Assembly: GCA_008632985.1 (NCBI GenBank)
Contig: QPGO01000173.1
Coordinates: 124,001 to 161,501 of the forward strand
DNA from: Psammoneis japonica
Taxonomy: Eukaryota
DNA length: 37,501 bases
Reading direction: 5' to 3'
Position 1 is the stretch's first letter. Every line of letters starts with the position of its first letter. Position numbers and translations under genes: made by a program. Below the pieces are notes generated by a model. That model was given only the letters and a program-made list of their open reading frames with translations, searched no databases and had not been told where the DNA came from. This document shows, one piece after another, positions 1,900 through 22,738 of this stretch.

Positions 1900-3421
1900 A
1901 TGTCGACCTTTCTCTTTACTTCCGAATCTGTCAATGAGGGACACCCTGGTATGTTCACTCTTTTGTGTGTGTATTGAAAAGGATTGTGGTGGAGATTGTT
2001 GATTTTGTTTTGTACCAAGAAAATACCCCTCCTCGTCGTGTGGCATGTTTTCGTCTCGTTCCGCCGTCTCGTGCATGGGCATGCGTTGTTGGCTATTTTT
2101 GTGATTATATTTGCAGTTACAGAGGGTAACTTTCACACACACGTTGATTGTAGTTGAATACGCATACAAAAAGGCCACTGTCGCATCAATAGTGTAGTTT
2201 TTCTTGCGCAACTTGAAACACGACGGGTACCTTTCTCTCCAACGTTCGTACTTGAACAACAACGTTCAAACAAATCATTTCACTCACTCACACACACTCC
2301 TCTTTCTCTACACAGACAAATTTTGCGATCAAGTGTCGGACGCTGTCTTGGACGCATGCATTGCCGGAGACGAATCGTCTCGTGTCGCATGCGAAACGTG
2401 TTGCAAGACGGGCATGGTGATGATTTTTGGTGAAATCACCACGGCCTCGACCGTCAATTACGAACAAGTCATTCGTGACGCCATCAAGGACATTGGTTAT
2501 GATGATCCCGCCAAGGGATTTGATTACAAAACGTGCAATGTCATTGTGGCCATTGAAGAACAGTCACCGGATATTGCTCAATCCGTCGATGCCGTCAAGG
2601 TGGAAGACATTGGTGCCGGTGATCAGGGCATTATGTTTGGGTATGCCACGGATGAGACGGATTCGTACATGCCCTTGACGCACATGTTGGCCACATCGAT
2701 CGGGTCCAAGTTGACGGAAGTCCGCAAAAAGGGAATCTGTGAATGGGTCAGGCCCGATGGCAAGACGCAAGTCACGTGTGAATACAAGTTGGAAAACGGT
2801 GTGCCCGTCCCACAACGTGTCCACACGATTGTCATTTCCACGCAGCATTCCGAAGACGTGTCGAATGAACAGATTGCGTCGGATCTCATGGAACACGTCA
2901 TCAAGCCGGTTGTGCCGGAAAAGTATTTGGACGACAAGACCATTTACCACTTGAACCCGTCCGGTCGTTTTGTCATTGGTGGTCCTCACGGCGATGCCGG
3001 TTTGACGGGACGAAAAATCATTATCGATACCTACGGTGGATGGGGTGCTCACGGTGGTGGAGCCTTTTCCGGAAAGGACACAACCAAGGTTGATCGCAGT
3101 GCCGCCTATGCCGCCCGTTGGGTGGCCAAGTCCCTCGTGGCGGGTGGATTGTGCAAACGTGCCCTGGTGCAGCTGTCCTATGCCATTGGTGTGCCGTACC
3201 CACTTTCGGTCTTTGTCGATTCGTACGGGACTGTCAAGGAGGGCATGACGGATGCCGATTTGACTGAAGTGGTCAACAAGAACTTTGATTTGCGTCCCGG
3301 ATGTATTATTCGGGATTTGGATCTCAAACGTCCCGTCATGCGCAAGACGGCCGCCTACGGACATTTTGGACGGGACGATCCCGATTTTACCTGGGAGAAG
3401 GTGAAGGAACTCAAGCTTTAG
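1900..3421 (+). CDS. metK: S-adenosylmethionine synthetase (MAT); exons 1900-1948 and 2316-3421, 367-nt GT-AG intron 1949-2315
   Basis: Exon 1 reads [17 protein letters not shown]|gtatgt and joins cag|AC AAA TTT TGC GAT (DKFCDQ). Signature motifs [14 protein letters not shown] and GGGAFSGKD are present; stop TAG at 3419-3421. Confidence 0.97.
2100..2137 (+). promoter_or_regulatory. Putative intronic hairpin containing a METTL16-like TACAGAG motif
   Basis: TGTGA..AGTTAC-AGAGG-GTAACT-t-TCACA: nested inverted repeats around TACAGAGG (2118-2125), preceded by an acceptor-like ttgcag. Function is inferred only. Confidence 0.4.
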
Positions 3422-3450: not shown

Positions 3451-3679
3451 GAAACAATAAAAAAAGTAAAATGAGGTTGTGTGTGTTTCAAAAAAAAAAA
3501 AGTGATTCTTCTCTCAATAGAGTTTAATAGCGCTGTTTATCGTTGGTGCCGTCTTGCTTTGTTTGTCTCTCATCACATTCGAATGATTTTTACAATGTTC
3601 TCGGGCCGTACGGCAAACGCAAAAGACTTGTTTTGTTCTTTGGTTCAAAAAGACAAAAGTAGCAGTTCTCTGTTCTCTA

Positions 3680-3775
3680 GTGGAGAGAGACGAGCGGGCT
3701 TTTTGTGCATGACCAAGACATGTGGGAGCAGGGGGCTCCGTCTCTGCATCGTGGTAAGGCACTCTAGTAGAGCAC
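3680..3775. repeat. Short dispersed repeat, copy 1 (related to 14590-14718), at the left edge of hypermutated block A
   Basis: tggagagagacgagcgggctttt ... cagggggctccgtctctgcatc ... aaggcactctagtagagca matches, in the same order, tggagagagacagcgcgggctttt ... caggggtctccatctccacatc ... aaggcaaaactctagagca. Confidence 0.5.
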
Positions 3776-6700
3776 GACTCTCTGACACAACACTGCTTGG
3801 ACTGCAGCTCTTTAAAGGTGCAGCACTGCACCACAGTGCAGGAGGTGGGGTGGGTGTTGTTCAAGAAACTGAACATGTCCAAGCCTGAAACAAAGCCAAC
3901 AAGGGGATGATGCCTGCAAGCACCAACACAGATGCCTTGACAGGACAGGCACTTTGTGATCTGTGCACTCCTGCCAGCTTTGCAATGTGCAGGACCAGCT
4001 GACCTCCAATGGAGAGAGCTGGTGGTGGATGTGGAGTTGTTGGCAAAGTCTGGAATGTTGCAACAGACACAAACCTCCTGCTTGATTGGACTGTGGGTGT
4101 TGAGCCTGCCCCCCCCCCCAAAACATCACTTGATGCTGTTGGGCACTTTGAAGCACCTTGCCTTGAACATCAAGATTGAGGGGGGAAGATGCTTGCTTTT
4201 TGGCAGCTTTCCAGTGCAGCTCGTGCCAGTGTGGATGTTTGACTCTGGCACTTTTCAAAGAGCACTTGGTTGGTGGCCTTCCTTTTTGGCAAGCTGCCCA
4301 CCTGCAAAAGTTGGTCCTTGGGATCTGAAGATGCAAAACAACAGTCGCTGCATCCTCAGTTGGACACCTGTGGTCAAAGTCAATGCCTTTGATGACATCA
4401 ACCACGCTGCGCCCTCCCAGGTGGGACCTTTGAAAGGCAGGTGGTTTGTGATGTGCTGTCCAAGTTGGCTGCACTCGTGCACAAGCCCTGGCTCATGTTG
4501 ACAGGGCTTGCAGTCATTGACATGGCTGAACAAGTTCCTTGAGAAGCAAGCACATGGTCTTTTGCTGCAACCCTCTTTGAGGATCTTGGAAAAGCTCACT
4601 CTGGGGCATTCACATTGACGTTGAAGGCATGGACCCTGGCTGGTGCAGCCAGATTTTGTGGGATGTGTTTTGAGCTCAGGGCATTGTGGCTGAGCCCAAC
4701 TTTTGCCAGTTTGCATGTCAGGTTTCTCGTGGCCAACTCTGCATTGAAAGTTGTTGCCCAGCTGCAAACTGCTGTTGTTGGAGCTCTTGCCAAAGAGGCT
4801 GGGAAATGCCTGCCAGTTCACAGGCTGGGCCAACCAATGCCCAGGCTCAAGGAGACAGCATGCCCACACTGAGAATGCCAAACTTTGGAGTGAGTTGAAA
4901 GAGACAAAGCACCTGACATGAAAGGAGGTGGGGGGGGAGCAGAGAGGGGGGCAGAGTTGCCCTCCAGTCACCACAGCCTGAGAGATGTCCTTCACAGTCA
5001 AAAGCTCTCGACCTTTCATGGAGTGTGTCTCCTCATCTGGTTTGCCCCCCTGCCCACTGTGGCCACTTTTTCTCCAACTGTTGAAGTGGGCAGCATCTCA
5101 GCGCACCTTGACAATTCCAAGTCATCACCTTTTGGCAGGACATTGCACCACAGCTGTTTCAGCCCCAGCGCAGGTTGACTTTCATGTGCATCCCCCAGTC
5201 TGAAGTTGTTCAAGCATCTGGAGCAGCAACCTCCCTTGATTTGGCCTTGGGGCCTCAACCTTTCTTGGGAGGCTGTCTCTCACATGAGGATTCTTGCAGG
5301 GGGTGTCAGCTGTCTGCTTCCCAGTGAGGGGGTTGTGGCCTGTCTCAGTGCTGGAGTGTGTGGGACCAATGAGGTCATGTTGCATGGAAAACTGCTTGTC
5401 ATCTGTCATTGGTGGCTGGGGTTGCCCCACTGCAAACAATCCTGTTTTTCCACCAAAACTCATGTTCCACACTTGGGGGGCAGACTGCATTGACACACAA
5501 GTGCAGGTGGGCTCTCTGACAAGATCTTTCTTCCTCCTTGTTTTGGGATTTGCACGGGGACAGCCATGGGCAACTTCAGGGGTGTGCATGCCAGGACCCA
5601 CCTCTGCCACCATTGCTCATGGATTGTGCAACACTTGGGGTGCAAGTTCTTGAGCAAATCTTTGGGAGCTCCTGGTGGTCATGGGACAAAGGCTTGTCTC
5701 TGCCACTTTGGTGCTGCTGGCCAACCCCAGCCTGGCAGTTGGCAGCCAATGGCAGCCCAGCACACCCATTTGTGTCAAGGGACCTCTCCCAAAGTGGTGG
5801 AAGCAACAACAAAGTTGGGGCGCTCCAGCCAAGGTCCAATGAATGGCCAAGAAGCTCCAACAAAAGAAGGTCCAGCCCCAGTTGAAAGCAGAGGGGATGA
5901 AGCAACACAGCTTCAGGTGGTGATTCAGTGGCTCAGCACAGCCAACTTGGAAATGTGATGTGGCTGCTCAACAAAAATGTGACATCACTTTGAAGATGAT
6001 GCCACATGAAAAAAAATGAAAAAAAATGTCATTGGCCCTTGAGCAATGCAGGGCACCCTGCCAAGTGCCAGATGTCCCACTTCATCAAAGTGCACCAGGG
6101 TCACAGTTTTGCTGACACACACTGCACCTGTTCTCTGCATGCTGGTGCAGATGACAGAGAAACAACCACTGCACAATCAGAGTTCTTAGCCAACCACCAC
6201 AAAGTCAGAGCAGTTCTGAGCTGTGCACCATTCTTGTGCAATGCAGCACTGCATCAAGTGTGATGATGGCCTCAGCAAAGCAGGAGAAAGCCAAGCTGAA
6301 GGCTGCTGTCAGTGGAGGAGCTGAGTGCAGCACCATGGCTGTGGGTGCAGCAGGGCAAGAAAGCTTTTGTGATCACCACCATGCTGGAAGAGGGTGCTCC
6401 AATCCAGCTCTCATTTGCCTGCCTTGGGCTTCAATTGAAAATGTGGGGAAAGCAAAGCCATTGAAAAAGCCTCCACCCTGGCCAGCTGCCACCAGAGTTG
6501 TGGCAAGCAATGCAAGCACATTGAGCAGCAGGAAAAACAAGTGGAGAGTCTCTTGTGTGACAGCAACAGCAGCAGTGATGAGAGGAGTGTTGAGAGCATT
6601 GCTGAGGTGTGACGTTGTGTGACATCACATCAGATGTTGTGCATGTGTTTGCACTGCACAATGTTGAGTGCTAAAGTGTGACACAATGTGCCGCTGTTTG

Positions 6701-9330
6701 CACCTGTCACATGCCAGAAGTGAAAAACAAAGCCAGCAAGAAGTGCAAGCAAAGGGTGAGCAAGATGTCAAAGTGAGAGCAAGGGACACACAAAGAGGTG
6801 CAAAACTGACAGCAGCAACAAGGGCATTGAGAAAGCAAGAACATGCAGCTGCACTGCAGTGTGCAACACTGCATTCTTTCATGTTCTCTGTTGTTTGTGC
6901 CAAACATGGGTGATGAAGTGACAAAAGACAAGCACAGTCAGGAGAAGCAGTGATTGCAACCACCACAGCAATGACCAGGAGAGAGCAGCGCCAAGAAGGA
7001 CAATCTTTTCAACGATGAATGGCAAGAAATCAGAGGTCAGCAATGTTGATGAGGGCAGTGTTCCAGCGCAACAGGACAGCAGGGCCAGTGAGAAACACAA
7101 GGTGAAAAAACAGCTGTCCTGCAGCTCTGTTGCAGTGCTCTTGTGACGTGCCATTGCATTGCATCTCATGCACCAGAACAATGACAAAGCAAAGGAGGAG
7201 GATTGCAGTGGTGGCAAGAATGTCACAAATGTCTTTGATGGCCACTCCACAGCATCAGGGCAAAGGGCATTGGATGGCTGTGTTGCTTTCCAGGTGGGTG
7301 CCAAAAGAGACCCTCCTGACTTCAAAACCATGCACAGCATGAAAAATTTCTTCGAAACCCTGGGAGGGTCTGTGCAACATTTGACATGGTGCCTTGAAAG
7401 GGCCACAAAAATGTTGCACAAGCAATCAAGGGTTGTGACCCAGGTGAGTTAAAGGCCAACAAATTGTGCTTTTTGTCTGATTGCACCTGAGATGGTGCAG
7501 GTTTTGGTGTCTTAGTGCAAGTGAAATTTGGCAGTCACCAAGGATGTCACACCACAAAATGTTGCGCAATGTTGTGCTGCAAGACACAGTGGAGTGCTGC
7601 ACAATGTGATGTGCTGGTTGCCAAGCAGTGCAGAGTGCAACACACATGTTGTTGAGCAAGCATCAAAAATGCTCAACACAAAATGTCATGCAATGGAGCA
7701 TGATGTGCTGCAATGAGATGTGTCGCAACTTTGCACCACACATGCCTTTTTTCCTTCTTTTTGTCATGAAGTTTGCTGCTGTTGAAAAAGAGTGCTCCAC
7801 ACTTCAAAGAAACAGCAGGTCACAGGACACAAGAGCTTCGCAAACACCTGGAAATGCAAGGGATCATTGGAGCTCTGCAAGAGAAAGATCAAACTTTGTG
7901 CAAATCACTGGAAAAAATGTGACAAGCACCTTTCACAGCATGACAGCTGTTTTTTTGAAACATTGCTGCCATGTCCTTCACAGCAGGCAACATGTGGCAA
8001 CACCACCGCTGCAATGAGAACATGGGTCATGTGTGTGTGCCAAAAAACAACCACCCAGCCCTCTGTCAACACACACTTTCATGCACTCTGTGCACTCCTC
8101 AATGCAATGAAGCAGCCCTTGTTCCATGAGTCCTTGTGTGAACAGAGGAAAAGATGACACAGAGCACACCGTGCAACAAGGTTGTTGGGGCCATTGTTCC
8201 ATGTGCCACCACACCACCCTTTGTCTGCTGCCCTTTCTGCCCATCCCTGGGGCACCCTGAGGTGTGGCAGAAGAGCAACTGTGAAAATGTTGTGTGGCAT
8301 CACAGTGTGTGGCAACATGCTCTCCAGCCCTGTTGGGCCGCAGAATTCCAGGCGCAAGCTCTGCAGCAAAGTTGCCCAGCAGTGAATTTTGCCAATGACC
8401 GCTGACAGAAAACAGGCAATTTTGTGAACAGAAAAAACTCCTTCATGCTTGAAGCACATCATTTCCGCTTTGCCTTGCTGCACTCTTCAAATGCACCAAA
8501 GACTGCACCCAGCCAGTGTTTTTGATCCCACAAAATCGTGAAGGCGAGCCTTTGGCTTTTGGCAGCTTTGCAAAATGGGGAGCGTGAAACAACTTTGTGG
8601 AAGATTGCAGGTGGAAATGTGCATGTGGCACATTGTCAAAAAACACTGACACCACAGTGCAGCAGTGTGAGGCCTCACCTCCAGAGCTGGCTCGGAGCAC
8701 GTCGGGCATTGAGCGCCGTGCATCTCAACAGTGCACTGCATTGCCTGCTGCCTCAATGTCACACAAAGGCACACCTTTCTCCATGTGTTTGGAGATGCAA
8801 AAGCAGCCTGCAACCATTGTTTGGTGCAGGTGGCTGCATTGCACAGGGGGCACCACACTGCGGGTTTGTGTGGCAAGAAATCCCGCAAAAGCTCCAAGCT
8901 TTGCCAAGCAGGGTTGGGTTGCCCCCTTTTCCAACACAGCAGCGTGCAAGAGCTGAGAGAGCTTGGGTTTTCCTGCTCTTGCAGCACATGTCCAGTTGAA
9001 AAGGGGCAAGCTGCTTTCCAGAGCAAGAGTTGGGGGTTGGAGGAGGAAGAGCACCTTTGCCTCGCCGTGTGGCGCAACAGAGAAGTGCCGTGATGCCGCG
9101 CCATGGTGCACGAGTGGCTCTGGTGTTGCGATTTCAAATGCTGTGCTCCGATTTCAAATGCTGTGCTGTGATCACTGTACAGTGCAGGAAATGCCGGCAC
9201 AGTGCATGACATAAAGCAGAAAGATGAGTGAGGATGAGGCTCAGGCCCGGTTCACCACTTGGTTCAGCAGAAATCAATTGCCCTCAACATCTTGAAGACC
9301 TCATGATGTGGGTTCAGCGATTCACTGACT
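3700..9330. other. Hypermutated block A: TpA- and CpG-depleted, TG/CA-rich decayed sequence (probable transposon or gene relics)
   Basis: No TA found by eye between ~3815 and 6186, and few CGs. ORFs in all six frames lack Tyr and are rich in Cys/His. The origin family is not recognisable. Boundaries are approximate. Confidence 0.85.
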
Positions 9331-9735
9331 GTTTACTTAGGATTCCCTATTTCTGGAAAATGTCTTCTGTCCATTCAATAAATAATGTCAATTGTCTTGC
9401 TCTGATCTGAGACATTTCTGGGCTATATGACATTATTTGTAATCATTTTCAAAACAACATCACATGATCGTCATCGGCAATCCTTTCTTTCCTTTTTTCT
9501 CATCACGGTAATTTAGCGGCCTCCTCGTCTCGTCTCGACTCTACTGTATGGTTTGTTTTGGATCCTCCTTGTCGCCTTATTCTGAAGTCTACGTTGCTCA
9601 GTTCACAGTTTGGAGTTCACACCATTCCCGGATATTTACATGGGCGATAAAAGGAATCTATTACAGTACAAATTCCCTGCTTTTCGCTCTTCGAAACGAC
9701 CTACATTTACGGCTGTTCAGCTGTTCAGCACGAGG

Positions 9736-12141
9736 ATGAAGGTCATCCCTTCACTGTTGCTTGTCGCTGCTGTGTCTGTGTCCCTCCATCTGCCAACGAC
9801 GGTTGCTGTTGCTTCCGAGGAGGATACGACCTTGCAGTTTGTCGGAAGACATGAAACACATCCCTTTCGTTTCCCACTTGGTCCATGTCAAGGGCATTGT
9901 CGAACAAGTAAAGACTGCCACGTAGGACTTTCGTGTCTATCCTACAATGGTGAAGAGCAAGGTGTGCCGGGATGTAAAGTTGTTGGAAACAACGGTTTGG
10001 GACGAAACTATTGTTCATACCCTGTACGAAACACTAGTTCCATAGAGAAGCCTCCACCGCTTCTAAAGTCATTGAAGAATGTGGAAGCTAAGCCAATGCA
10101 TCCACTAACTGTCGTGAAATCATCAGAGGCCCGTCCTCTTGGTCTTTGCCAGGGGCGCTGTTCCGGTCATGAAGACTGTAGATTTGGCTTGAACTGTTTC
10201 AGGAGACGAGGAGGCCAGCCAGTACCAGCCTGTAGTGGAAACGATAAAACGTCGCGCAGTTACTGTTTCAAGCCCCTTCAGGGTGTTCTAGTGAGACGTG
10301 GAGTCAACGGTGTACCCGAATCGGCTTTCTCACTGAGAAAGTGCCAAGGACACTGCGCTGGAGATGCGTTCTGCGGCCTGGGACTAATTTGTTTCCGGCG
10401 AATCGGAAAACAAGCTGTTCCTGATTGTCGTGGCAACGGTATACTTGGTGTCAATTATTGCACCGTTCCCACTGTTTCAAACACCTTGGTTCGTGTTGTG
10501 GAAAAAAGTCAAGTCCGCCGAGGAGGACAAGCGCTGCTTGCAGAGTGTGAAGGAGAATGCCTCCTGGACAGTCATTGCAAAAAGGGACTTCGATGTTTCA
10601 AACGTCAATCCAGTGAAAGCGTTCATGGTTGTACTGGCCAAGGTATTTTAGGTGGTTCCTATTGTATCAAGGATAAAAGAACAGGCACAGAGAAAGAAAA
10701 TAACAGCAAGAAGCCAGAAGATAAAAAAGACAATGTTGATTCAATCAGTCATCTCGACAATGCTGGCCGATGCACCGTTGCCGCACCTTGCTCAAAGTGC
10801 CAAGGGGATTGCGCCGGCAGCAATGATAAATGCAAGCGAGGATTAATTTGTTTTTCCAGGACAACAGATCACAGGATCCCGGGGTGTGCAGCCCGTGGTG
10901 TGTCCGGTATTGATTATTGCTCTGTTCCACCAAAGGACAAGCCGGTAACATATGTGCCTGGCAAGCTCTCCCACGTAGAAGAAGGCTTATTGCTCTCCAG
11001 TGGTCTGACGGCCCGTCTCATTGCCACGAAGCATCAACCAGTCAAGCTGGAGCACAATGGAAAACTGTCCAAAATAAGATTTCACCCAGCTGCAGATGGT
11101 GCCGCCGTATTTGCGAATAAACAGACGGGTGGTTGGAAGTACGTATCCAATGCGGAAAGCAGAATAACAGGAGGTGTGGGTGCAATTGAATTCGATGCTC
11201 AAGGTAAAGTCATTGGCTATGAGAGGCTGCTGTCTGGAAGCCAGAGAAATTGCGGTGGAGGCGCCACATTCTGGTCTACTTGGCTTTCCTGTGAAGAAAT
11301 AGAAGGCGGACAGATTTGGGAGGTAGACCCATTCGGAAAGCACCCACCAAGAAAGACTATCATCGGAGTCAAGGGTGGAGACACGTATGAGTCTGCTGCT
11401 TACGATAATCGGAAGCCTGAAAGACCAATCTTTTACGTCACCACTGACAATAAACGCGGGCCTGTTCTCAAGTTCACACCGGACAGTGAGGTGACTTCAA
11501 AAGCATTGAAAAGCAACGATTTTTCGCGGATTTTGCACTCAAATGAAACCGGCACTGCAAGAACCGAGTTCCTTGTACTTCGACCTAACAAGAGGAAAGC
11601 TAGCAAAGAAGGTACCTTTTCCTGGACCGAGGATTTGATAGCAGCTCGCAAGAACGCGTTTCAGGAATATTCCCAATGTGAAGGCATCGATGTTAGAAAT
11701 GGCATTGTCTACTTTACCTGCAAAAGGAATGCTCATTTATTCATTTTGGATACCGACCGAGGCACCTACACACGAGAATCAACAAAACAAGGAGCCTTCA
11801 ATGGAAGCCCCGATCAAGTAGCGAGAGTTCTCGGGGGGAATGAAAGTGATGCAATCCTTTATTTTTGCGAAGAAACGGCACCAAATGGTCAGGACTGTGG
11901 AGTGCACGGTCGAGACGGCAAGGGAAATTATTTCACTATTCTCGAAAATTTCGGTCACAGACCTGAGCTGGCTGGGGAAGTAACTGGTTTGGCGTTTTCT
12001 CCCGACAACATGCGAATGTATGTTTCCTACCAGAAACCAGGATACATTTTTGAAGTCAAGCGACTCGATGGCTATCCCTTTGGAGGTCAGCGATTGGACA
12101 TCAAGCACGGCACCACTGTGCTGCGGGAAATTAAAATTTGA
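9736..12141 (+). CDS. phoX: Secreted PhoX-family alkaline phosphatase with five N-terminal frustulin-like Cys-rich repeats
   Basis: Signal peptide MKVIPSLLLVAAVSVSL. Five repeats of C(Q/E)GxC..C..GLxCF.R....VP.C.G....YC. C-terminal PhoX motifs DGAAVF, YVSNAE, NCGGG.T.W.TWLSCEE, YESAA, EGID and EVTGLAFSPD..RMYVS.Q. Confidence 0.85.
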   Translation: MKVIPSLLLVAAVSVSLHLPTTVAVASEEDTTLQFVGRHETHPFRFPLGPCQGHCRTSKDCHVGLSCLSYNGEEQGVPGCKVVGNNGLGRNYCSYPVRNTSSIEKPPPLLKSLKNVEAKPMHPLTVVKSSEARPLGLCQGRCSGHEDCRFGLNCFRRRGGQPVPACSGNDKTSRSYCFKPLQGVLVRRGVNGVPESAFSLRKCQGHCAGDAFCGLGLICFRRIGKQAVPDCRGNGILGVNYCTVPTVSNTLVRVVEKSQVRRGGQALLAECEGECLLDSHCKKGLRCFKRQSSESVHGCTGQGILGGSYCIKDKRTGTEKENNSKKPEDKKDNVDSISHLDNAGRCTVAAPCSKCQGDCAGSNDKCKRGLICFSRTTDHRIPGCAARGVSGIDYCSVPPKDKPVTYVPGKLSHVEEGLLLSSGLTARLIATKHQPVKLEHNGKLSKIRFHPAADGAAVFANKQTGGWKYVSNAESRITGGVGAIEFDAQGKVIGYERLLSGSQRNCGGGATFWSTWLSCEEIEGGQIWEVDPFGKHPPRKTIIGVKGGDTYESAAYDNRKPERPIFYVTTDNKRGPVLKFTPDSEVTSKALKSNDFSRILHSNETGTARTEFLVLRPNKRKASKEGTFSWTEDLIAARKNAFQEYSQCEGIDVRNGIVYFTCKRNAHLFILDTDRGTYTRESTKQGAFNGSPDQVARVLGGNESDAILYFCEETAPNGQDCGVHGRDGKGNYFTILENFGHRPELAGEVTGLAFSPDNMRMYVSYQKPGYIFEVKRLDGYPFGGQRLDIKHGTTVLREIKI

Positions 12142-12639
12142 AAGCGCAACTTTGACAACTTGTTTGCTCGAGGGGTGTACCGCTTTTGTATCACGTTGGT
12201 TTCTGCATGCTTCCTTATCAGTTTCATTCTTCATGTAGTGCTTGTTGATTATTTGGCGGCAAGCATCTTTTGATGTTCTTAGACCATGCGTTTATTGAGC
12301 ATGATCGCTTCCTCTTGGCTGCGGGTTAACCAGTCCTCTTTTTCAACTTGCTAACCTCTACTACTGGCACTTCTTCCAAAGATACACAACTCAAACAACA
12401 GGCAAAAGACCAAACTGGCATAGTCTGACAATGTCTACGTTGTACCTTGAGCCCATGATTGTACCGTATTTTAGACACTTTTAAATTTTATCGGCGACGA
12501 GCTGCTGCCTCTAGAAACGCTTACCGCGTCCTGGTTTTTCCTTTCAATCCACGACCACATGGATGGGAGCAGAACACCAGTAACACATGTCATGCACATT
12601 GTCGCACGCAGAGTTGTGGGGCGATTGACACACTACACA

Positions 12640-15600
12640 ACTGAAAGAACCCTTCACCATTGTCTTGACAAAGCATTTCAATCAGCGTCTAGAAGGGCCA
12701 CAGCTTGCATTTCCACCGCAACTGCCCCTGGCCAATGTCTTTTGAAGTCAGTCTCCTCCACTTGAACTGACTCCATTGGCCTGGTGAACCATCTGGCAAG
12801 ATGGGTGTGGTTGGATGGGTTGTTGTGGAGGCAAGTGAGTTCTTCCTCGATCTGACCATCTGCAATGTTGTTGACAGTCAGTCTTGATCCAGAAGCCTCC
12901 AATCTTGGCCACTCACATGCAGCGCCACCACATGTCCCATGCCAAATGATTTTGCAGTTGTTGTGCCAAGCTGGAAAGCCAGCACAAACTGGTGTTCCAA
13001 AGCTCAACAAATTCACAGCAAGCCTGGGCTGCCATGCTGCTGCACACTCTGCTCTTGCAAAGAAGCTGCGTGCAAGAGAACTCTCGCCTGAGAATTCCTG
13101 CACCCTCAAAAACTGCTTGTGCCTGTGGATGGCAATTGGAAGTGGGTGCAGGTGTGTCCTGTTCATCATGCCATGATTGAAGTGACTGCACACACCCCCT
13201 GCAGCACAGGAAGGAATGAGCCACCAGTTGGTTGGCAAGCCATCATTTCAAAGTCCAGGCTTCTTTTGGTCCAAGAGGGCTGTGCAGCACAAGACAAGAT
13301 CAATGCCATCTTTGGATTCTCTGCAATGCAGACAAACTGGGCTTTTGAGTTCCTTGCAACAATGGAGGTTTTTGTCAGCTGGGGCAAATCCTGTGCTCTG
13401 CCGTGGCTCCGCCAGACTCTTCCAAAGGTGCAGCATTGGCTTGCTGCCTGATCTAGAGCTTCCCAATTGACTGGCAAGCATTGCAGCAGAGACTTCACTT
13501 TTGTGCCAGTGCCTTTGGCCAGTGGTCTGCACAAATGATTGGGGTGGACTGCTGGTGCCAGGAGGATGTGAGAGTTTTGCCACCAAGCTTTGCTGGCCAC
13601 ATGATGTCATTGACTGCAGCTCAAAGGGTTGCATTGTTGCCTTTCCTGGCTGTGCTGCAAGAGCATCTCCCAACAAGCTTTTGCAAGGAGATCCATTTTG
13701 GTGCTGGAACAACTTGTGAAAGGGGATGTGCCTGTCTCTCTGTGACCCTCAGCCCCTTGGCTGGTGTGCCACAAGCACTGCAGGAAGCTCCCAGACAACA
13801 GAACAAATTGCACAGACAGGTCAGATCACAGTGCTTGCAAGTTTTGGATCACTGTGCCAAATTGCAGAACAAGCATGCTCCAAGACTGAGGTCGCAACAG
13901 TTGCAGCCCAGAGTTGCCTTTCCTCATCTCATCTCAGCAAGTGCAGCAACAACCTCTGTTGGAAAGGTGGCTGTTGGAACATCAGGGTCAGAGGCAGTTT
14001 TCACAGGACAGAGACAGACAATGTTGCGGTGTAAGATGCACTGACAATTGTGTGGACAATCTGACAAGGTTGCACTCACAACTCAGGCTGAGTTGTGGGT
14101 CTTGTGCCAACTTTTTAGCTTCTGCACCCAGCTGACATGGCAACAGCAGTCAGCATCATTGGGGTGGTTGCAAGCCACACAGTGAGTTCAGGGTCAGCGA
14201 GGCTGTAAACGTGTGCCACTTGACAAGCCATGAAACTCCAACAGTGACTGGCTGTGTGCACCAAAAATGCCCCCAAGCTTGCCCCAATGTGCAGTGGAAG
14301 GTTTTTCATGCAGCAGGCCAGAGTCTGGCTCACCCCTCTGTGTCTGTGGAAGTTGTGCCTTTGCCAGGTGACAAAATTTTGCCTGAAGCCACCGCTGCAT
14401 TGTTGCTGCAAGGGGTTGTCCATGGCAGACACATGCTGACAATGCAGGCATCATCCCATCATTGTGTGTTGATGTGTGCTGCAAAACAAAAAGGGTTGGT
14501 GGCTCATGTGGGTTGAGGGTGCACTTGTACTCATTTTTGGTTGCTTGAACACATTTTTTGTTGCTCATGTGGGCCTGGCAGCTCTCTGCCTGGAGAGAGA
14601 CAGCGCGGGCTTTTTTGAAGGAAAGATCAAGAAAGAGACTTTTTTGGGGAGACGTTGGCCTGGATCAGGGGTCTCCATCTCCACATCTCTGGAGTGACAA
14701 GGCAAAACTCTAGAGCAGCTGTTGATTGTGGGCCCTCGCTCCAGGCCCTGGCTCTGTGAAGGATGGGTTCAGATGCATCAACCCTCACTTCTTTGCTGCC
14801 TTCAGCAAGACAAGCACAGCCTCTTTGGAGCAACAGAGGAAGCCAAGTCTAAGTTGCATGGAAGAGCAAAGAAAACAAACATGCAATGTCAGAAAAACTG
14901 GAAGTGGGCATGGGAAAGTTGGTTGCAGCAGCAAAGAATGAAGACAGGAGAAAAAGCACTGGAGGCAATGCAAGAGATCAAGGTGACTGAGCAAAGCACC
15001 CTGAAAACTTTGCAAGACTCGAGTCTTTGCCCAAGATGCAAAGCTCAACATGGTCAATTGGAACATGGAAGATCTCAAAAATCACCCAAGGAAGTCTTGG
15101 CAAGCTCAAATGACACACACAAGCAAGAGCTTGCAATCCAGAGCGCACCCCACCGGGGCAGTTTTGAGCACAGAGACAGTTCTCGCAACACCCGAAACAG
15201 CTTGGACCTCATGAAAACTGTGGCAAATGTTTGCCTGCCAATGTGATGAGAAGCAAATGGCAAGGGAGCAGCAACAAGAAAGAGGAGGTTCAGAGAACAA
15301 GAGCTCCAATGTGTCCAAGCAGCGGCTCCTGGTCAGCTGAGATTTGGCCCCCCAGCAACGCTCCCAGGCAATTGCAGGTCATGCTCAATGTCATGTGTGT
15401 CAACAGCAAAGAGGACAAAGAAGAACAGAAGCATTGCCCATGTGCTGAAAATCAACTCCTGGAAAGCCAAATGATCTGATGGGGGTTTGAAGGTCCGCAC
15501 ATTTTGGTGCTGACGGGAGAGGGAGATGTGTGATTTGTTGCTTGTGTGTGCATCAGTGTTCGAGTTCCAACACAGGCACTGCTGCATGTTGACAATCATT

Positions 15601-15840
15601 TGTGCATGTGAGGATGGATGGTGTCAGCAAAGGGAGGAGTCCTCCACTCTGTTGCTTTGGCATTTGAGTCAATTCATCAAGCAGATTGACAGTGCTGTCA
15701 AACCCCCACTTCTTTGAGGCAACATTGAGACTTGAAGATTGTGCAGCGTGTTTCGTTGTATGATGAAAAGATTCTTCATCGGAGCAAAGAATCACCATCC
15801 TTGTCATTCTCTCCTGCAAAAAGACTGCCAAGGTCAGACT
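12640..15840. other. Hypermutated block B: TpA- and CpG-depleted decayed sequence
   Basis: Same signature as block A: nearly Tyr-free ORFs and rare residual TA (e.g. ctag at ~13453 and ~14710). It contains protein-like relic segments on the minus strand. Boundaries are approximate. Confidence 0.85.
14590..14718. repeat. Short dispersed repeat, copy 2 (related to 3680-3775)
   Basis: Three colinear matching segments shared with 3680-3775. Confidence 0.5.
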
Positions 15841-16075
15841 GCTGCGCTAGAGAATAGATTGCACCTCGAACCTCGAACCTCGACCGGTGATGTGTGATTT
15901 GCGCGAACGCGCGAGAGCACGATCGCGCGACACCGAGTCGGGGCAATATGAGCGCCAGCGGCGCGCTGGAAGATTTCAAATTTTGCGATTTCCATTTCGC
16001 CAAAGCCAAAGCGATCGTGTTTTCTTTCATTGCTGTTGTTGCAACCTGCAAAGAAATAATACCGACGGTGGTGAA

Positions 16076-17116
16076 ATGCGAAAGGTAGCAAAACAAGCCT
16101 TGATCTATAGTGTGACTGCCGTTTGCTTGGGAGGATATATTCTTCGTTTTCAATCAAGTCAAACGAACGCGTTGAATCAATCGATAATACTACAGAACAA
16201 GAATGTCACGAATGTCACGTCAACATTCGTTCCGTTTCCGCACAGATTTCTCCCGTATGGAATAGATGCTGCTTGTCGTTGGTCCACAACAACCGCAAGC
16301 AAGCAATATAGAGCAATGGACGATTTTTACTGCAACAGTTACAGACATCTCGACACGATACAAGTAGCAGCGTTAAACGAGGGCATTTGCTTGCCGACCG
16401 ACAAGGTATTTAGGTCGAGGCTTCATCTTTTTTCCTCCCAAGAAGCCATCGACTGCCTCTCATCAAACAAAGATATTCGAGTAGCGGTATCTGGAGACAG
16501 CTACAACATTCAACTTTATATCGGACTGATTGACATTCTGTTGGAGAATCCTAGCAATGAAGAAATAATGAATGCTTCTCATAGACGAGAGGTTCTGAAA
16601 CTATCCATGCGGGCCCTTCACGATCATTGGCAGCAAAACAAGTCATATCCCGCAGTGGGCTATGTTTGCAGCGCTGAATGCTACGGACAGGGGGGATCGT
16701 TATTTCATCTCGAGTGCTCGAACTGCATCAATTCCATTTTACAAAACAAGACCAGCTTCGCGGCAATAGTGGGTGCTGGCATTCACATGTTAGGGTCGCT
16801 TAAAAGCAACATTACGAGATTTTCTCACGAAATCAAAGCGTTCCTTGACAGCGCGCCAAACGTTGTATTCAACTCTATGCCGTGTTATCAAAAGCAAAAA
16901 GTACCCGAAGAATACCGGCCTGATGTTGGCAGGAACGGACAAGCTTACCATCAAACTCTACCGCTGGTCAAGAATCGCCCATTTCTCGACTTTTATCAGT
17001 TAACAAGAGCTTGCTACATGGACAACTGCTCAACGGACGGGGGACATAGGGCTAGGTATGTGAATCGGTGGAAAGCACAGCTACTACTCAATACGTTATG
17101 CCAAGTCACGTGTTAG
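16076..17116 (+). CDS. Type II membrane protein with SGNH/PC-esterase-like GDS and DxxH motifs (putative acyl esterase or O-acyltransferase)
   Basis: N-terminal hydrophobic anchor (ALIYSVTAVCLGGYIL), several N-x-S/T sequons, VAVSGDS and a C-terminal TDGGH; normal TA/CG content. Start placed at MRKVAK within ORF 15887..17116. Confidence 0.6.
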   Translation: MRKVAKQALIYSVTAVCLGGYILRFQSSQTNALNQSIILQNKNVTNVTSTFVPFPHRFLPYGIDAACRWSTTTASKQYRAMDDFYCNSYRHLDTIQVAALNEGICLPTDKVFRSRLHLFSSQEAIDCLSSNKDIRVAVSGDSYNIQLYIGLIDILLENPSNEEIMNASHRREVLKLSMRALHDHWQQNKSYPAVGYVCSAECYGQGGSLFHLECSNCINSILQNKTSFAAIVGAGIHMLGSLKSNITRFSHEIKAFLDSAPNVVFNSMPCYQKQKVPEEYRPDVGRNGQAYHQTLPLVKNRPFLDFYQLTRACYMDNCSTDGGHRARYVNRWKAQLLLNTLCQVTC

Positions 17117-17371
17117 AACGGATTGATTAATGTTCGACATCTAAAACAACGAAAGCATTCGTGGTGCAAACACATCACTGCAATGCTAAAAAGTGTTCGC
17201 GGTAACCTTGTTTTAGTATGTCTCGGGCCAGTGATAGTTCACCGCGATCGTTATTTTCCCATCGCTCAATCGAAACAGAGCTCGTTGTCATCATAATATA
17301 GTGTGAGTTCATGTTGTATGTACTGTACAAAATTAACTGGCTTTGCCTCCTACCGTACTCTAGCTACCGTA

Positions 17372-18450
17372 GAGTCCACTTGAACTCCAATCACGCCGTC
17401 TCCGTCCGCACTGCCGGCGGGTCCACATGCCGTTTCGGTGTGTCGAAGCGTCATTTTCTCGGAGGCAACATTAGAACTTAAGCGTGCATCAAAGCAGGGG
17501 ATGAGGAAGAGCAAGGCCAAATCAGCCAAATTGAATGACGTGCAACAGCTTCCACTTTCCTTGATTACAGTCTTCATTGTGGCACTTCTAACGTGTTGTC
17601 CATTGCATGGTGATGTTCTCCATCTGCCAACTTGGACAGAGACACAATGGCCACACAAAAGGACAATCCTGACAAGACAGATGCCAAACAACCAAAATCC
17701 CAGTTTTCTGGATAGATTGGCAAAGAACCAGGGAGACAAAAGGCACAAAGCTGGCAATCATGATTGCCATGATGAAGGACAAATTGAGGCTGGCATCATG
17801 TGAAGAATCCAACAAGTCCATGTTGGCCACAAGGAGAAGAATCATGGCCCATGCCCAACAAGGAAATTTCAACCAAAGCTGATTCTTTGCCAAAGCCAAG
17901 TGAGCCCATCAAGCGCATCTCTAGACAGTGGGGTGCAGAGAATGACAAAAATGTCAATGAAGCTCAGCGCACTTGCCAACTGGCACTGAGTTTCAAAAGA
18001 AAAATGTTTGTTGTGTCTCCTCCAAGATGCTCTGTTTGAATTGTGCATGTGAGCAGCAGGAGGCACATGAAATGAGAGGCAACAACAAAGCACGCAGTTC
18101 TCAACCCCACACACTTCTTGCCTCTGTCATCTCACCATGGCAGCACAAAGATTGGCACACAAGGAGGCAACAAAAGACAAAGAAAAAATGTGTGGAGCCA
18201 AGCACAAGCTCATCTGGCAAGTTGTTTGACAAGAAACTGTCCCCAAAGTGGCACAAACCTCTTTCTTTCTCAGTGAAGACAACAATTTGTCACTGTTGGC
18301 TCCATCGCCAGCAGTGTCGGCTGCACTCTGATCTCCTTTTCAGCTTGAGCAAGCCAGCCACCAAGATTGCCTGCTCTCACAAGAGAGCATCTTAAAAGTC
18401 ACATCATTGGTTTGCCAGGTGTCACACCCATCAGTGGGAAAATGTTAAAA
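17372..18450 (-). pseudogene. Hypermutated partial copy 1 of the MFS transporter gene (3' part)
   Basis: Translation fragments FANLSRKLGFW, MILLLVANMDLLDSS and DGDGVIGVQV match 23180..23812. It has indels, and the intron donor is destroyed (cttacctc -> cttgcctc). Confidence 0.92.
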
Positions 18451-18484
18451 CCAACTGTGGCACAATGCTGAAAATTTCCTCAGC

Positions 18485-18566
18485 GGGCAGGAGACACGGG
18501 GCTGGATGTGTGAATTGGTGGGAGGTGCAGCTGCTTCTCAACATGTTGTGCCAAGTCATGTGTTAA
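18485..18566 (+). pseudogene. Hypermutated remnant of the 3' end of the SGNH-like gene
   Basis: ctgcttctcaacatgttgtgccaagtcatgtgttaa (18531-18566) aligns to ctactactcaatacgttatgccaagtcacgtgttag (17081-17116). Confidence 0.85.
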
Positions 18567-18839
18567 AAAAAGATCAATCACCACTCAATGTTCACAAAAC
18601 AACAAAAGTTTTTGACTCATGGTGCAAATCTTCGTGCCACTGCAGCGCTCATGGCTGCCTTGCTTCATCACACCTTGGGCCAGCAACAATTCTGCACCCC
18701 ATCCACCATGGTCATTGTTCCCTCCCACTCAATCAATCAGAGCTTGTTGTTGTCTTTCCAGAAGTGAGAGTCAATGCTGCTGGTGCGGCGTGCACAAAAT
18801 TGAGACACTGCCTCCTGCTGCGCACTCTCTGGCAGCTTG

Positions 18840-19770
18840 CACACTTGAGCTCCAGTCACGCTGTCTCTGCCCATGCTGCCAGCAGGTCCATGTTCCACAT
18901 TGATGTGTCAAAGAGAGCCTTTTCTTTCTTGGCTGCAATGTCAGAGCTTGAGTGGCATGAAAGCAGGGGACATGGAAAAGCAACACCAAATTGGCCATTT
19001 GGAATGGCATGCAATGGCTTGCAATTTCCTTGACCACAGTCTTCCTTGATGTGCACTTCAAATGTGCTGTCCACAACATGGTGTCATTCTCCATGAACCA
19101 AGTTTGAGAGAGGAACAATGTCCCAAATGCACAAAAGAGGACGGACCCAACAAGATGCCACAAAAACCCAAATCCAGTTTTCTGGGTGGGTTGGCAAAAA
19201 AGCAGGGAAACAAAAAGGCTCAAAATTCTGAACAACAGATGAAGCTGGCAACCGTGGTTGCCATGATGAAAGGAAGACACAACTGGGGCTGTGTTGCATG
19301 AAAAATCCAGTGTGTCCATGTCTGCCACCAAGAGGAGAATCATTGGACCCATGCCCAAATTTGCAGCCATGGCTGCTGCTGCACCAACAAGCACCCAGGC
19401 AGCAGTGCAGCTGCAGCAGTGGGCTGCAACAAAGCTCAGCACACTTGCCAATTGATGACAAATTTTAAAAGCATGCTTTTCCAAGCTGCTTGAGCTGCAA
19501 AACATCAATGGCAGGCATGCGTTGAAAAGCAATGCCAACACAAGTTGACTTGTCACACAGACTTGCCTTGTGGTCACTGTGGCAATGCAAAGGTGGGCAC
19601 AAAAGGAGGCAACAAGGAAGAGCACACACTGAGCATGGAGCACAAGCTTTGTTTGCCAGTTGTTGATGAAAAACTGTTTCTGTGAAGAGCGGACCTGTTT
19701 CTTTCTTGACCAAGGTTGGCAATTTCTTGCTGTTGGCTCTGCCAGCATGGGCAGCATTGTTTTCTTCTGA
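18840..19770 (-). pseudogene. Hypermutated partial copy 2 of the MFS transporter gene
   Basis: FLVASFCAHLCIATVTT vs intact FLVTSFYANLYIATVTT; LGMGPMILLLVADMDTLDFSCN vs LGMGQMILLLVANMDMLDSSYD. The intron sequence is retained. Confidence 0.92.
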
Positions 19771-21358
19771 TCAGCTCCAGGTGGCACAAAAATGTGCAAT
19801 CCATCAAATGTCACATTTTGCCTGCTTGCAAGCTCCCTTCAATTTAAGTTTTTTCCAAAACCAATCTCTCTGTGCAGCAATGCCAGGAAAATGTTTTTGG
19901 CATCATGGCGTTTTGTGTTTTTTTTTTTGAGTTTTTGGTTGTTGAAAGAGGAGTTTTTGAGCCAGCCACTTTGGAGAATTTGTCAACTTCCATGTGAGAA
20001 AAAAGCTTTGCATGGGACTTTTTTCATTGTTTTGGGAGCTTGCAATTGTTTTCTGCCTTCACTCTTTTTACATCACATGTGTGTTGAACTTTTGCGTGCA
20101 CCAGAGTGCTCATTTCATCTCAGAGTGCAAAAAGAAAAGCCCACCGCCCCTGTTGCTGCACTCTTTTTTTGCTTCACTGCTGCCACCCACATGACACTGT
20201 TCTGTGTGAAAGAAAAAGAAATGTTCCTCAGCCAGCTGCCAATGCAAACAGGCACCAATCCCAACAAAAACCACTCTTTTTGATGAGAAAAGTGCCCCTG
20301 TCCAACAGTGCTGCCGCTGCTTGCCCCCCCCCCCCCGTCTCATGCTGCAGCTGCAAAACAGCCACCTGAACCCCACCGGGCCACACCTCTGACAACTCTC
20401 CACTGCAACTTTTTCTCCCATGACAAAGCCACCGCGCCACTCCTTGCAGTGTGGCGACCCCTTTGCTGATGTTTGATCTGCAAGCTTTTGAGCATCATTT
20501 TGTGTGACAACATTCATCACAGAAGCAAGAAAAGCATCTTGAACCATGTCCAAAACAAACACCCTTTCTTGTGCCAACACTCCAGAGCAACAGGGTGTTG
20601 CATTCATGCGCGCATTGACAATGCCCGAAACTGCTGCTCCAATTGCTGCCGCTTGTGGTTTGAAGTTGCTTGTGAGTGCAGAAGCTTTTGTGGGGCAGTG
20701 CACAAGCAACCAAAACAGTGGCCAGCACCAAGCTGAGGACATGAAAGCTTTTGTTCATTTGCTGGTGATGGCAATTTCCAGCTCCCCCCAACAAATCAGA
20801 TGTGAACCCCCCAAAGAGAAGTGCTCTCCAAAGATGTGTGAAGAGGCACTGAATCTGCCCAAAACTGCTGTGTTGGCCACCACGTGAAATTCTTGGGAAA
20901 GAACATTAGAGCAGGAAATTTTTTTCTTGAGGTTTGTGTTGCATTTCGGCAATTGTTGGCCAGCCACAGTGGTTTCGCCGTGTGTGGCCAAGAAGACGAC
21001 ACACCATTTTGATCTCTGCTGATTTGGGTGGGAGCAAGAAACACGAGTTGGCAAATCTTGGTTGCTCTGTTGTTTGCCAGAGGCCAAAAACTCTAAATGG
21101 CTTTTGTCATTTGGCACTGGTTGTTTCAACTTTTTCACTGATTCTAGCTGTGCCATCGTGGCAAACAGATGATCATTCGTTCTGGGCATGACAGTGTCGA
21201 GAGATGCCGCCGTAACGGCTGAACAACGGTCGGCATCTTCACACTGCTTCCCAGCTGTTTTAGCTTCATTCATTTTTTCGTGTCACTCCCCGCTCTAGCC
21301 TCGCTAACCTTTAGGAGTACGGTATCACGTTGCTCCTCAGAAAGTCAAAATACACAAC

Positions 21359-22615
21359 ATGTCGTTATCGGGTGATAACGGATTAGAAAGAGATTTGCTC
21401 TTGGTCGGCATCGGAAACGTGGAACAAGTCGCATGGTCGTCGCATGTTCCGCCTTTGCCAGAACCACGGAGCGACCACGCGGCGGTCGCAATAAGCAATC
21501 AAAAATACATGATTATTGGTGGCAATGACGGAAACAAACGTTTATCAAGAGTATTAGTTTGCAATCTTGAGTCTAAAGAATGGGAGCAATTGTCGTCATG
21601 GCCTAATCTCAATCGTGCCCGTAGTCATCATGCGGCAGTTTTTACACAACACAAAGTTTATGTATTTGGGGGACTGGATGGAGGTACTCTTGATTCCATC
21701 GAATGCTTGGATTTATCTCTCAATGAACCAAAATGGCAAATACTCAAAGCAAAATTGACTTGCACACGATACGGATGCACAGCGGCTGCAGTGGGAGAAC
21801 GATATGTGTACATCTTTGGTGGATCGGGCAAAACGTCGGTAGACATTTTAGACACAGCGACGGACGAAATTCTGCAAGGTCCACCCATGACTACCGCACG
21901 ATGGGGAGGTGCAGCGGAAGCTGTTGGGACTAAATTATATGTTGTTGGTGGGGACAGTGGGTATGGTGAAGAAAATTTGAATACCATCGAGTGTCTAGAC
22001 ACTGACCTGAAGAGATGGAAATTATGTCAAGCAAAACTGTCAACACCCAAATGGCACATGCGAGTTCAAAAGTGGGGTGACTCTATCATAATTGTCGGTG
22101 GCGAAGACAATGACGGCGATAAGTTGTCTTCGGTGGAAGTATTTGATACGAATCGAGATGTATGTATTTCGCTGCCCGATTTGTCTATGGCAAGATCTAG
22201 TCTTGCCACTGTAGTGCTGGGCAACAAGGTGTATGCCATTGGTGGCCATGACGGTACAAAAGAAGTGGCTTCAGTGGAATGCCTTGTCCTACCAAGAGCG
22301 GATCCAAAAGCTCGCCATTTTGCGGTTGTGCAGGCAAGAATCGCACTCGAGTCCCAATTCCATGACTTGGACGATTCATCTTCTGCAGAGTATGAAAATT
22401 TACTTGGCAATCAAGAGGAACAAATTTACAAATTGGAAATGGAGTTAGACAAATTATCGTGGTATCCGTTTGGAAAAGCGGATCAAAAGCAACATATCCA
22501 GAAGTCCTTGGAGAAACTTAAGTTGAAGGCTGCATTGCAGAATCTACAGCTTTTGCAAGAGCAAATTTCTGCCGAAATAAAAAAGTCGACGGAAACTGAT
22601 TCTTCAGACAGTTAA
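21359..22615 (+). CDS. Kelch-repeat (six-bladed beta-propeller) protein with a C-terminal coiled coil
   Basis: Six repeats of the type R..HAAV....YxFGG.....S.E..D....W in an uninterrupted 418-aa ORF. Confidence 0.9.
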   Translation: MSLSGDNGLERDLLLVGIGNVEQVAWSSHVPPLPEPRSDHAAVAISNQKYMIIGGNDGNKRLSRVLVCNLESKEWEQLSSWPNLNRARSHHAAVFTQHKVYVFGGLDGGTLDSIECLDLSLNEPKWQILKAKLTCTRYGCTAAAVGERYVYIFGGSGKTSVDILDTATDEILQGPPMTTARWGGAAEAVGTKLYVVGGDSGYGEENLNTIECLDTDLKRWKLCQAKLSTPKWHMRVQKWGDSIIIVGGEDNDGDKLSSVEVFDTNRDVCISLPDLSMARSSLATVVLGNKVYAIGGHDGTKEVASVECLVLPRADPKARHFAVVQARIALESQFHDLDDSSSAEYENLLGNQEEQIYKLEMELDKLSWYPFGKADQKQHIQKSLEKLKLKAALQNLQLLQEQISAEIKKSTETDSSDS

Positions 22616-22738
22616 CTTGATGCCGAGATAGGAGGTGCCGTGTAGGTAGCTTGCGGTCGTTCATGATTTAATCCTACAAGGATCCAACGATAGACCTACT
22701 CTAGAGTATATGATGAGCACCGGTCGTTTCGGTCGATT

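Follow-up and report, generated by a model that had tools for sequence, protein, structure and literature searches.

Three kilobase-scale blocks in a 37,501-nucleotide stretch of the genome of the diatom Psammoneis japonica (GenBank assembly GCA_008632985.1, contig QPGO01000173.1, positions 124,001 to 161,501; hereafter the window, numbered from its first letter) have lost nearly all of their TpA dinucleotides to a hypermutation that acts in place and follows a three-base context rule, and most of the few TpA sites that they still contain have been newly re-made. In these blocks (A, B and C in Table 1) the TA odds ratio is 0.03 versus 0.58 outside and the CG odds ratio 0.15 versus 1.00, with CA/TG raised (1.83 versus 1.22), AT lowered (0.72 versus 0.93) and GC raised (1.32 versus 1.00). 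Our preferred reading, to which we assign a probability of roughly 0.7, is a long-lasting, in-place transition hypermutation that changes adenines by a T-A-Y rule (Y, pyrimidine; R, purine; V, any base except T) and is accompanied by CpG decay, with a residue consisting mostly of re-made TpA. An earlier inspection of the same letters (the original prediction) had proposed that surviving TpA sites are mostly YTAR and that this reflects a mutator preferring (R)TAY; the context rule is supported by the present analysis and is broader than was then proposed.

All 22 TpA tetramers on which that proposal drew exist, within 1–2 nt of the positions given for them (17 YTAR and 5 exceptions), and no additional TpA lies inside the blocks between 3813 and 21094. 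The block limits used here leave out the two edge sites, at 3813 and 21094, and 15 of the 20 residual sites are YTAR, compared with 141 of 1047 TpA outside the blocks (Fisher p=1.3e-9) and with 72 of 482 in outside sequence not belonging to open reading frames (ORFs; p=9.6e-9), such that residual NTAN classes in the window are not proportional to background. Read on each strand, the residual sites give 40 triplets (TAA 21, TAG 13, TAC 5, TAT 1), a distribution far from that outside the blocks (TAA 416, TAG 433, TAC 695, TAT 550). Unbiased regeneration fails to account for a residue that is 75% YTAR, because the CpA and TpG steps from which a single transition re-creates TpA have Y..R flanks in only 623 of 2725 cases (23%) in the blocks.

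As transitions preserve the purine/pyrimidine skeleton, depletion was measured for each flank class as the fraction of Y-R steps that are TpA. This share falls from 23.3% outside to 0.14% in the blocks for RTAY, from 17.0% to 0.27% for YTAY/RTAR, and from 9.7% to 2.3% of Y[YR]R steps for YTAR, which is thus itself depleted about 4-fold. The order of loss, RTAY > YTAY/RTAR > YTAR, is that of two, one and zero strands presenting T-A-Y. The dinucleotides that have replaced TpA lean the same way, with a TG:CA ratio in the Y..Y orientation of 911:520 in the blocks and 1046:937 outside.

The ancestral state of part of block C can be approached through a gene for a major facilitator superfamily (MFS) transporter, of which two decayed tandem duplicates (copies 1 and 2) lie within or across the block and a third, unmutated paralogue (copy 3) lies beyond it. 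A self-search of the window with purine/pyrimidine-coded 30-mers found no paralogues besides these three MFS copies, in agreement with a BLAST self-search. With copy 3 as a stand-in for the ancestor, alignment columns were kept where no gap occurred within 3 columns and identity-or-transition reached at least 80% in a 21-column window, leaving 827 sites in copy 2 and, in copy 1, 538 from its mutated part and 364 from its unmutated part, the last serving as a control. The two mutated copies share 67% identity with each other and 70–72% with the intact copy, and at TpA sites shared between them the same product is found in 8 of 12 cases (7.5 expected if independent); they were therefore counted as independent. 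Ancestral TpA is unchanged at 0 of 29 sites in copy 2 and at 1 of 18 in the mutated part of copy 1, and of the 46 changed among the total of 47, 39 became CA or TG and 5 became CG. Transitions affect 21.5% of sites in copy 2 versus 8.2% in the control stretch, a rise far exceeding that of transversions (7.1% versus 5.2%), so that the process adds transitions and not transversions, and it does so about equally on both strands (T>C 53, A>G 47, G>A 42, C>T 36). Relative to copy 3 the mutated copies also carry transversions and indels, the pattern of old pseudogenes. The process acts in place, since the edge of block C runs through contiguous copy 1, whose 5' 640 bp are normal; duplication alone is no trigger, because copy 3 and positions 16951-17590 of copy 1 keep normal composition.

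The alignment also gives the direction of change and its dependence on the 3' neighbour. At asymmetric ancestral TpA sites, 23 changes hit the T-A-Y strand as against 8 on its complement (p=0.011). Counted per strand, A>G occurred at 5/26 TAA, 8/16 TAG, 17/26 TAC and 19/29 TAT, with TAY (36/55) clearly exceeding TAR (13/42; p=0.001), and the order of the triplets in the residue is the inverse of this order of mutability. The 3' pyrimidine also matters where no T precedes the adenine, with A>G at 70/287 V-A-Y versus 36/368 V-A-R (p=6e-7; 6/70 and 5/92, respectively, in the control stretch), and within this set at 26/99 C-A-Y versus 10/114 C-A-R. The T-A-Y preference that had been inferred is thus upheld by class depletion, direction of change, per-strand rates and forward simulation (below); the first three of these, like the unbiased entry into TpA (below), hold whether or not the residual sites are survivors. 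The changes CTAC>CTGC, GTAG>GCAG and ATAA>ACAA, offered as examples of it, are present in the paralogue alignment. Its suggested likeness to the U-A-C context of TadA held in part. In the natural tRNA substrate of TadA and ADAT2 a T (U33) precedes the edited adenine, and the substrates of eukaryotic ADAT2/3 mostly carry a purine at position 35; the T at −1 is shared with the rule found here, whereas C at +1 is no better than T (TAT 19/29, TAC 17/26), which makes the analogy a loose one. A purine at −2, which had been given in brackets in the proposed context, may add to the effect, position −2 being confounded with +1 of the other strand such that only the extreme classes separate.

These rates bear on an explanation that dispenses with a dedicated deaminase, in which T:G mismatches at methylated CpG recruit error-prone patch repair by a polymerase eta-like enzyme that mutates nearby A:T pairs. 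Such repair would fit the sharing of domains by CpG decay and A:T transitions, with edges within ~200 bp, and the equality of the two strands. Polymerase eta has the motif W-A, and TAA is a hotspot of antibody hypermutation. In the mutated copies, however, a 5' A gives no rise among non-T neighbours (A 41/250, C 36/213, G 29/192) and TAA is the coldest of the TpA contexts. Moreover, new mutations given in a preprint on the alga Bigelowiella natans (Mettrop et al., bioRxiv 10.64898/2026.01.13.699255) are A>G or T>C at TpA in 210/211 and 20/20 cases, with essentially no C>T. We therefore regard patch repair as unlikely.

Seven residual TpA sites in block C can be traced to an ancestral state, of which five were re-made and two are survivors (Table 1). 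The description of these sites as surviving consequently fails for five of the seven, which are secondary products of C>T or CpG change. The residue is the steady state of a long-acting process and not the remnant of one burst, and because its sites are at steady state and mostly re-made, the process was long-lasting or recurrent and no single event. YTAR dominates because it presents no T-A-Y on either strand and is removed most slowly. A literal form of the original prediction, one burst of a mutator confined to T-A-Y that left YTAR sites as untouched originals, would account for the excess of the sole class lacking T-A-Y on both strands (15 of 20), and the YTAR site at 18564 is indeed a true survivor. 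This form is nonetheless quite unlikely, given that most testable sites were re-made from CpA or CpG, that YTAR is depleted and T-A-R adenines do change (13/42), that adjacent double transitions exchanging TG and CA (29 of 214 ancestral TG/CA steps, 17600-19960 versus 22700-24320) indicate repeated cycling, and that a burst-only simulation (model M3) ends with TpA absent and CpG much too scarce.

CpG too is almost wholly lost in the alignment, with 1 of 37 ancestral CpG unchanged in copy 2 and, over both copies, 56 of 57 altered, TG or CA being the product in 47. Direction shows no bias at asymmetric sites (12:13), and among CpG contexts TCG mutates most often (15/26). This resembles methyl-CpG decay, as in silenced repeats of animals and the CpG hypermutation of basidiomycetes, in which CpG becomes TpG or CpA with no further context rule; such decay leaves the loss of TpA and ApT and the 3'-pyrimidine rule unexplained. 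CpG that remains in the blocks falls into 40 RCGY, 58 YCGY/RCGR and 14 YCGR, classes that are reproduced by simulation with a flank-free CpG rate, and GCGC is barely depleted (21 in the blocks versus 57 outside). Among 18 residual CpG in the aligned part, 2 are clearly retained from the ancestor and 8 or more stand opposite TA or CA. The leaning of residual CpG towards RCGY arises because the 3'-pyrimidine rule re-makes CpG from CAY. The same rule underlies the reduced ApT, the raised GpC and the peak of TG-to-CA double changes at R[YR]Y (14/40 versus 5/65 and 10/109).

Forward simulation was started from the outside sequence, with rates other than those at TpA taken from the alignment and the TpA rates tuned to the residual counts (15, 4 and 1). 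Under models with the 3' rule, without it, and with a 3:1 ratio at TpA, respectively, the simulated odds ratios were 0.74, 0.96 and 0.78 for AT (observed 0.72), 1.36, 1.03 and 1.27 for GC (1.32), 1.26, 1.12 and 1.22 for AA (1.29), 1.04, 0.93 and 1.02 for AG (1.09), and 0.90, 1.04 and 0.93 for GA (0.86). Residual CG in YxxR/YxxY/RxxY, observed as 14/58/40, came to 19/67/51, 32/75/32 and 19/69/49, and residual TpA, observed as 20 sites of which 75% are YTAR, to 20 (73%), 35 (20%) and 42 (34%). Within this modelling a 3' effect is needed to reproduce the ten dinucleotide ratios of the blocks, and the effective ratio of T-A-Y to T-A-R would be roughly 20:1, with wide confidence limits given the counts on which it rests; it would lie well above the first-hit 3:1, because a 3:1 simulation leaves too many TpA with too few of them YTAR. 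These results also bear on biased regeneration alone, in which TpA is removed without regard to flanks and re-created by C>T with a preference for Y-C-A-R. TTAA makes up four of the five re-made sites (derived from TCAA twice, GCAA and CCAC) and C>T at TCA is found in 13/68 cases, as such a bias would have it. Entry into TpA by C>T is, however, no higher at YCA (15/124) than at RCA (17/90), and since it is not biased towards YTAR the excess must stem from slower removal. Biased regeneration further leaves the 23:8 direction bias, the V-A-Y excess, the loss of ApT and the gain of GpC unexplained, and the model without a 3' effect gives 20% YTAR; we consider it improbable, to much the same degree as the single burst.

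Several points weigh against long-lasting T-A-Y hypermutation as set out here. All ancestor-based tests concern one gene family in one block, with copy 3 as stand-in, and just one ancestral YTAR site could be aligned. The first-hit direction ratio of ~3:1 is far below the ~20:1 needed for the residue, a gap that we attribute to later TG/CA swaps and a possible effect of a purine at −2. Creation at CAY and fast removal of TAY are incompletely separable. The TpA part of the simulation fit is circular, its rates having been tuned to the residual counts (the remainder is not), and the outside sequence, which is largely coding, is a proxy for the ancestors of blocks A and B.

The blocks occupy gaps between long plus-strand ORFs (Table 1). 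The first of these, for SAM synthetase, has no introns and its top matches reach 92% identity (named relatives: Nitzschia, Achnanthes and other stramenopiles), and judged by such sequence similarity the window is diatom nuclear DNA. The blocks are kilobase-scale regions with sharp edges, at which the borders of TA and CG depletion agree to ~200 bp. At three edges (9000-9200, 15800-16000 and 17400-17600) TpA is scarce at normal or high CpG (TA:CG 1:10, 3:22 and 4:12), and there the adenine process appears to run ~200 bp past the limit of CpG decay. No Pfam family exceeded its cut-off among 60 block ORFs of at least 90 aa, with one sub-threshold match, to HTH_AraC (17 bits versus a cut-off of 26.6), and 18 six-frame read-throughs of the blocks with stops as X matched no Pfam family. 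Among 80 metagenome loci examined for DNA orthologous to the region downstream of SAM synthetase, none has blocks free of TA and CG; the best of them has 83% identity and just 1.2 kb of downstream sequence, and two low-TA windows in one locus contain 30–32 CpG and are therefore unlike the blocks.

Table 1 Features of the window, in positions of the 37,501-nucleotide stretch
Feature	Positions	Strand	Description
Block A	3814-9177		5.4 kb; 4 TpA, all YTAR; CpG sparse; TpG/CpA ~2x
Block B	12691-15758		3.1 kb; 7 TpA, 4/7 YTAR
Block C	17600-21093		3.5 kb; 9 TpA, 7 YTAR; contains the 3' portion of MFS pseudogene copy 1, the entire copy 2 and a further 1.3 kb
MFS copy 1	16951-18451	minus	Normal composition to ~17590, hypermutated beyond
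MFS copy 2	18479-19768	minus	Hypermutated throughout
MFS copy 3	22739-24290	minus	Unmutated host MFS-transporter paralogue; C-terminal ORF 23180-23863
SAM synthetase ORF	2198-3421	plus	Flanking ORF
PhoX-like ORF	9586-12141	plus	Flanking ORF
ORF	15851-17116	plus	Flanking ORF
Kelch ORF	21308-22615	plus	Flanking ORF
Residual TpA, block A	TTAG 6187, CTAA 6672, TTAA 7450, TTAG 7513
Residual TpA, block B	CTAG 13454, GTAA 14032, TTAG 14116, GTAA 14206, GTAC 14528, CTAG 14711, CTAA 14850
Residual TpA, non-YTAR	GTAA 14032, GTAA 14206, GTAC 14528, ATAG 17713, TTAC 20069		Exceptions to YTAR
Residual TTAA	19465-19468		Re-made from TCAA by C>T; copies 1 and 3 have TTTCAAAA
Residual TTAA	18392-18395		Re-made from TCAA by C>T
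Residual TTAA	18445-18448		Re-made from GCAA; CGGCA in copy 3, TGCCA in copy 2
Residual CTAG	17921-17924		From CCGG via transitions at both CpG positions; CCAG there in copy 2
Residual TTAA	19844-19847		Aligns to CCAC/TCAC in copies 3/1; probably re-made; weak alignment
Residual TTAA	18563-18566		True survivor; ancestral TTAG (copies 1 and 3), flank G>A
Residual ATAG	17712-17715		True survivor, non-YTAR context; GTGG there in copy 2

Three sequencing runs were listed as carrying this sequence, all from one sample and one study, with no RNA data set among them. Logan contigs from that sample (the same sample, no independent isolate) are identical to the window across 3460-5132 and 14159-15490, and k-mer contigs that match the blocks exactly have depths of 27–60. 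Because of these exact matches the blocks were treated as real sequence and a base-calling artefact is disfavoured. That the blocks reflect miscalled modified bases, or that selection has kept YTAR as functional motifs, appears extremely improbable: the mutated MFS copies carry transversions and indels as well as transitions, and the re-made sites lie in pseudogenes without ORF or Pfam signal. Contig depth is 26.9 over 3634-4901 versus 48 in the adjoining gene, which may mean that the left part of block A is not alike in the two haplotypes. Differences between contigs and the window inside block A include CA>CG and TG/CA swaps (among the 40 places listed out of 301, at which haplotype and paralogue are indistinguishable), with swaps between same-sample contigs and the window at 5709-5710 and 7845-7846. 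In block B, a multi-copy element near 13778-14411 is marked by a summed contig depth of 531 versus ~60 nearby and many loose ends at 14089-14243. This element, which holds two of the exceptions to YTAR (GTAA 14032 and GTAA 14206), may be a younger, less mutated insert; an inverted-repeat search around it found no convincing transposon ends.

The C-terminal ORF of copy 3 has 49% identity to an MFS protein of Seminavis robusta, with PF07690 in 5/5 hits. The intact gene is present as two overlapping minus-strand ORFs, 23180-23863 and 23797-24582, a split that reflects either a short intron or a frameshift. Between the unmutated part of copy 1 (16951-17560) and copy 3 (22739-23340), 7 of 14 TpA differ, while other dinucleotides are mostly 73–87% unchanged (CG 15/20, GT 12/19), a difference that may point to TpA being mildly unstable in copy 3 or outside the blocks, with small numbers and an ambiguous direction of change. 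Elsewhere in the window, a 26-bp unit is repeated in tandem 4–5 times at 31850-31979, within a stretch whose TpA is unusually high (odds ratio ~1.0).

The closest known system is that of B. natans, in which integrated giant-virus and virophage DNA undergoes A:T>G:C hypermutation restricted to TpA (Mettrop et al., bioRxiv 10.64898/2026.01.13.699255). According to the preprint, the 231 mutations newly arisen in two integrated viral regions were, with one exception, A>G or T>C, those all at TpA, the genome holds 124 clusters poor in TpA and rich in CpA+TpG, and an ADAT2-like DNA adenine deaminase is proposed (bioRxiv 10.64898/2026.01.13.699255). The blocks described here share the change of TpA to TpG or CpA on either strand, the kilobase-scale and sharply local extent, and the combination of low TpA with high CpA+TpG. 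They differ in their host, a diatom (stramenopile) instead of a rhizarian, and in the degree of depletion (TA odds ratio 0.03 versus 0.45 in the virus region of B. natans). They differ further in that CpG is lost too and adenines outside TpA are mutated (V-A-Y 70/287 versus 6/70 in the control), and in that the targets include a host gene, the duplicated MFS transporter, and Pfam scans revealed no viral or transposon domain. In the main text of the preprint the words CpG, context, flanking, trinucleotide and diatom are absent, and neither flank context nor CpG loss is reported there. The hypermutation is thus of a known kind, described very recently, to which the T-A-Y rule and the loss of CpG are new relative to that text. 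In the literature we found no report of TpA or combined TpA and CpG hypermutation in diatoms, and the B. natans preprint was the only report of TpA hypermutation found for any organism.

Comparison with other systems gives partial likenesses. Repeat-induced point mutation (RIP) of ascomycete fungi likewise wrecks duplicated genes by dense transition hypermutation and leaves a dinucleotide signature, but RIP converts CpA to TpA, which thereby increases, while here TpA is destroyed, and the duplicated length is not mutated in all copies (copy 3 and 16951-17590 are normal). The amphioxus enzyme BjADAT2 acts on DNA as a deaminase of cytosine, with the motif TCG, and of adenine, with the motif GAA (PMC10354150); its cytosine motif coincides with the CpG context that mutates most often here (15/26), whereas its adenine motif differs from T-A-Y. 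ADAR-like editing of double-stranded transcripts that are then copied back into DNA could account for equal A>G and T>C and for the 5' T, the Discussion of the preprint noting that ADAR favours a U 5' of the edited A (bioRxiv 10.64898/2026.01.13.699255). It leaves CpG decay unexplained, and the edge of block C passes in place through a contiguous gene copy. ADAR editing favours a 3' G, against which the pyrimidine here beats the purine (TAY 36/55, TAR 13/42), and no ADAR is known outside animals, so that we regard ADAR-like editing as very improbable.

Under the hypermutation that we favour, the blocks would be putatively silent stretches of chromosome between expressed genes, one of them holding the decayed MFS duplicates, and mutation would proceed in place over a long time, confined to the blocks and equal on both strands. 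One component would be A-to-G change, on each strand far more frequent at T-A-Y than at T-A-R, then at V-A-Y and last at V-A-R; a 5' T would bring near-complete loss, and a 3' pyrimidine would add a factor of ~2.5 at ordinary adenines and probably ~20 at TpA. The second component would be the decay of CpG to TpG or CpA. Slow C>T at CpA would continually re-make TpA in all contexts; sites with T-A-Y on either strand would be removed almost immediately, and YTAR, which is T-A-R on both strands, would persist longest, TTAA most of all, and come to dominate the residue. We infer that a DNA adenine deaminase directed by chromatin state is responsible and that the loss of CpG represents decay of methylated cytosine. 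A wider proposal is tentative, and we hold it to be possible rather than probable: that diatoms have a chromatin-guided enzyme deaminating adenine in double-stranded chromosomal DNA at T-A-pyrimidine, a genome defence related to that of Bigelowiella and possibly old in the stramenopile-alveolate-rhizarian group, which together with CpG decay erases silent DNA.

Nuclear hypermutation directed at TpA was first reported in 2026 from one alga, in a preprint whose main text gives neither enzyme nor flank rule, and the same kind of process is found here, nearly complete, in a diatom, a member of a different major lineage. A single rule covers several oddities of the blocks, namely RCGY-biased CpG, low ApT and high GpC. 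The three-base motif T-A-Y, acting on both strands and with C equal to T at +1, provides a test for candidate deaminases and a search signature for other genomes. If a chromatin-guided diatom enzyme is indeed responsible, it would represent a naturally occurring editor of adenine in DNA whose target is set by a defined motif of three bases.

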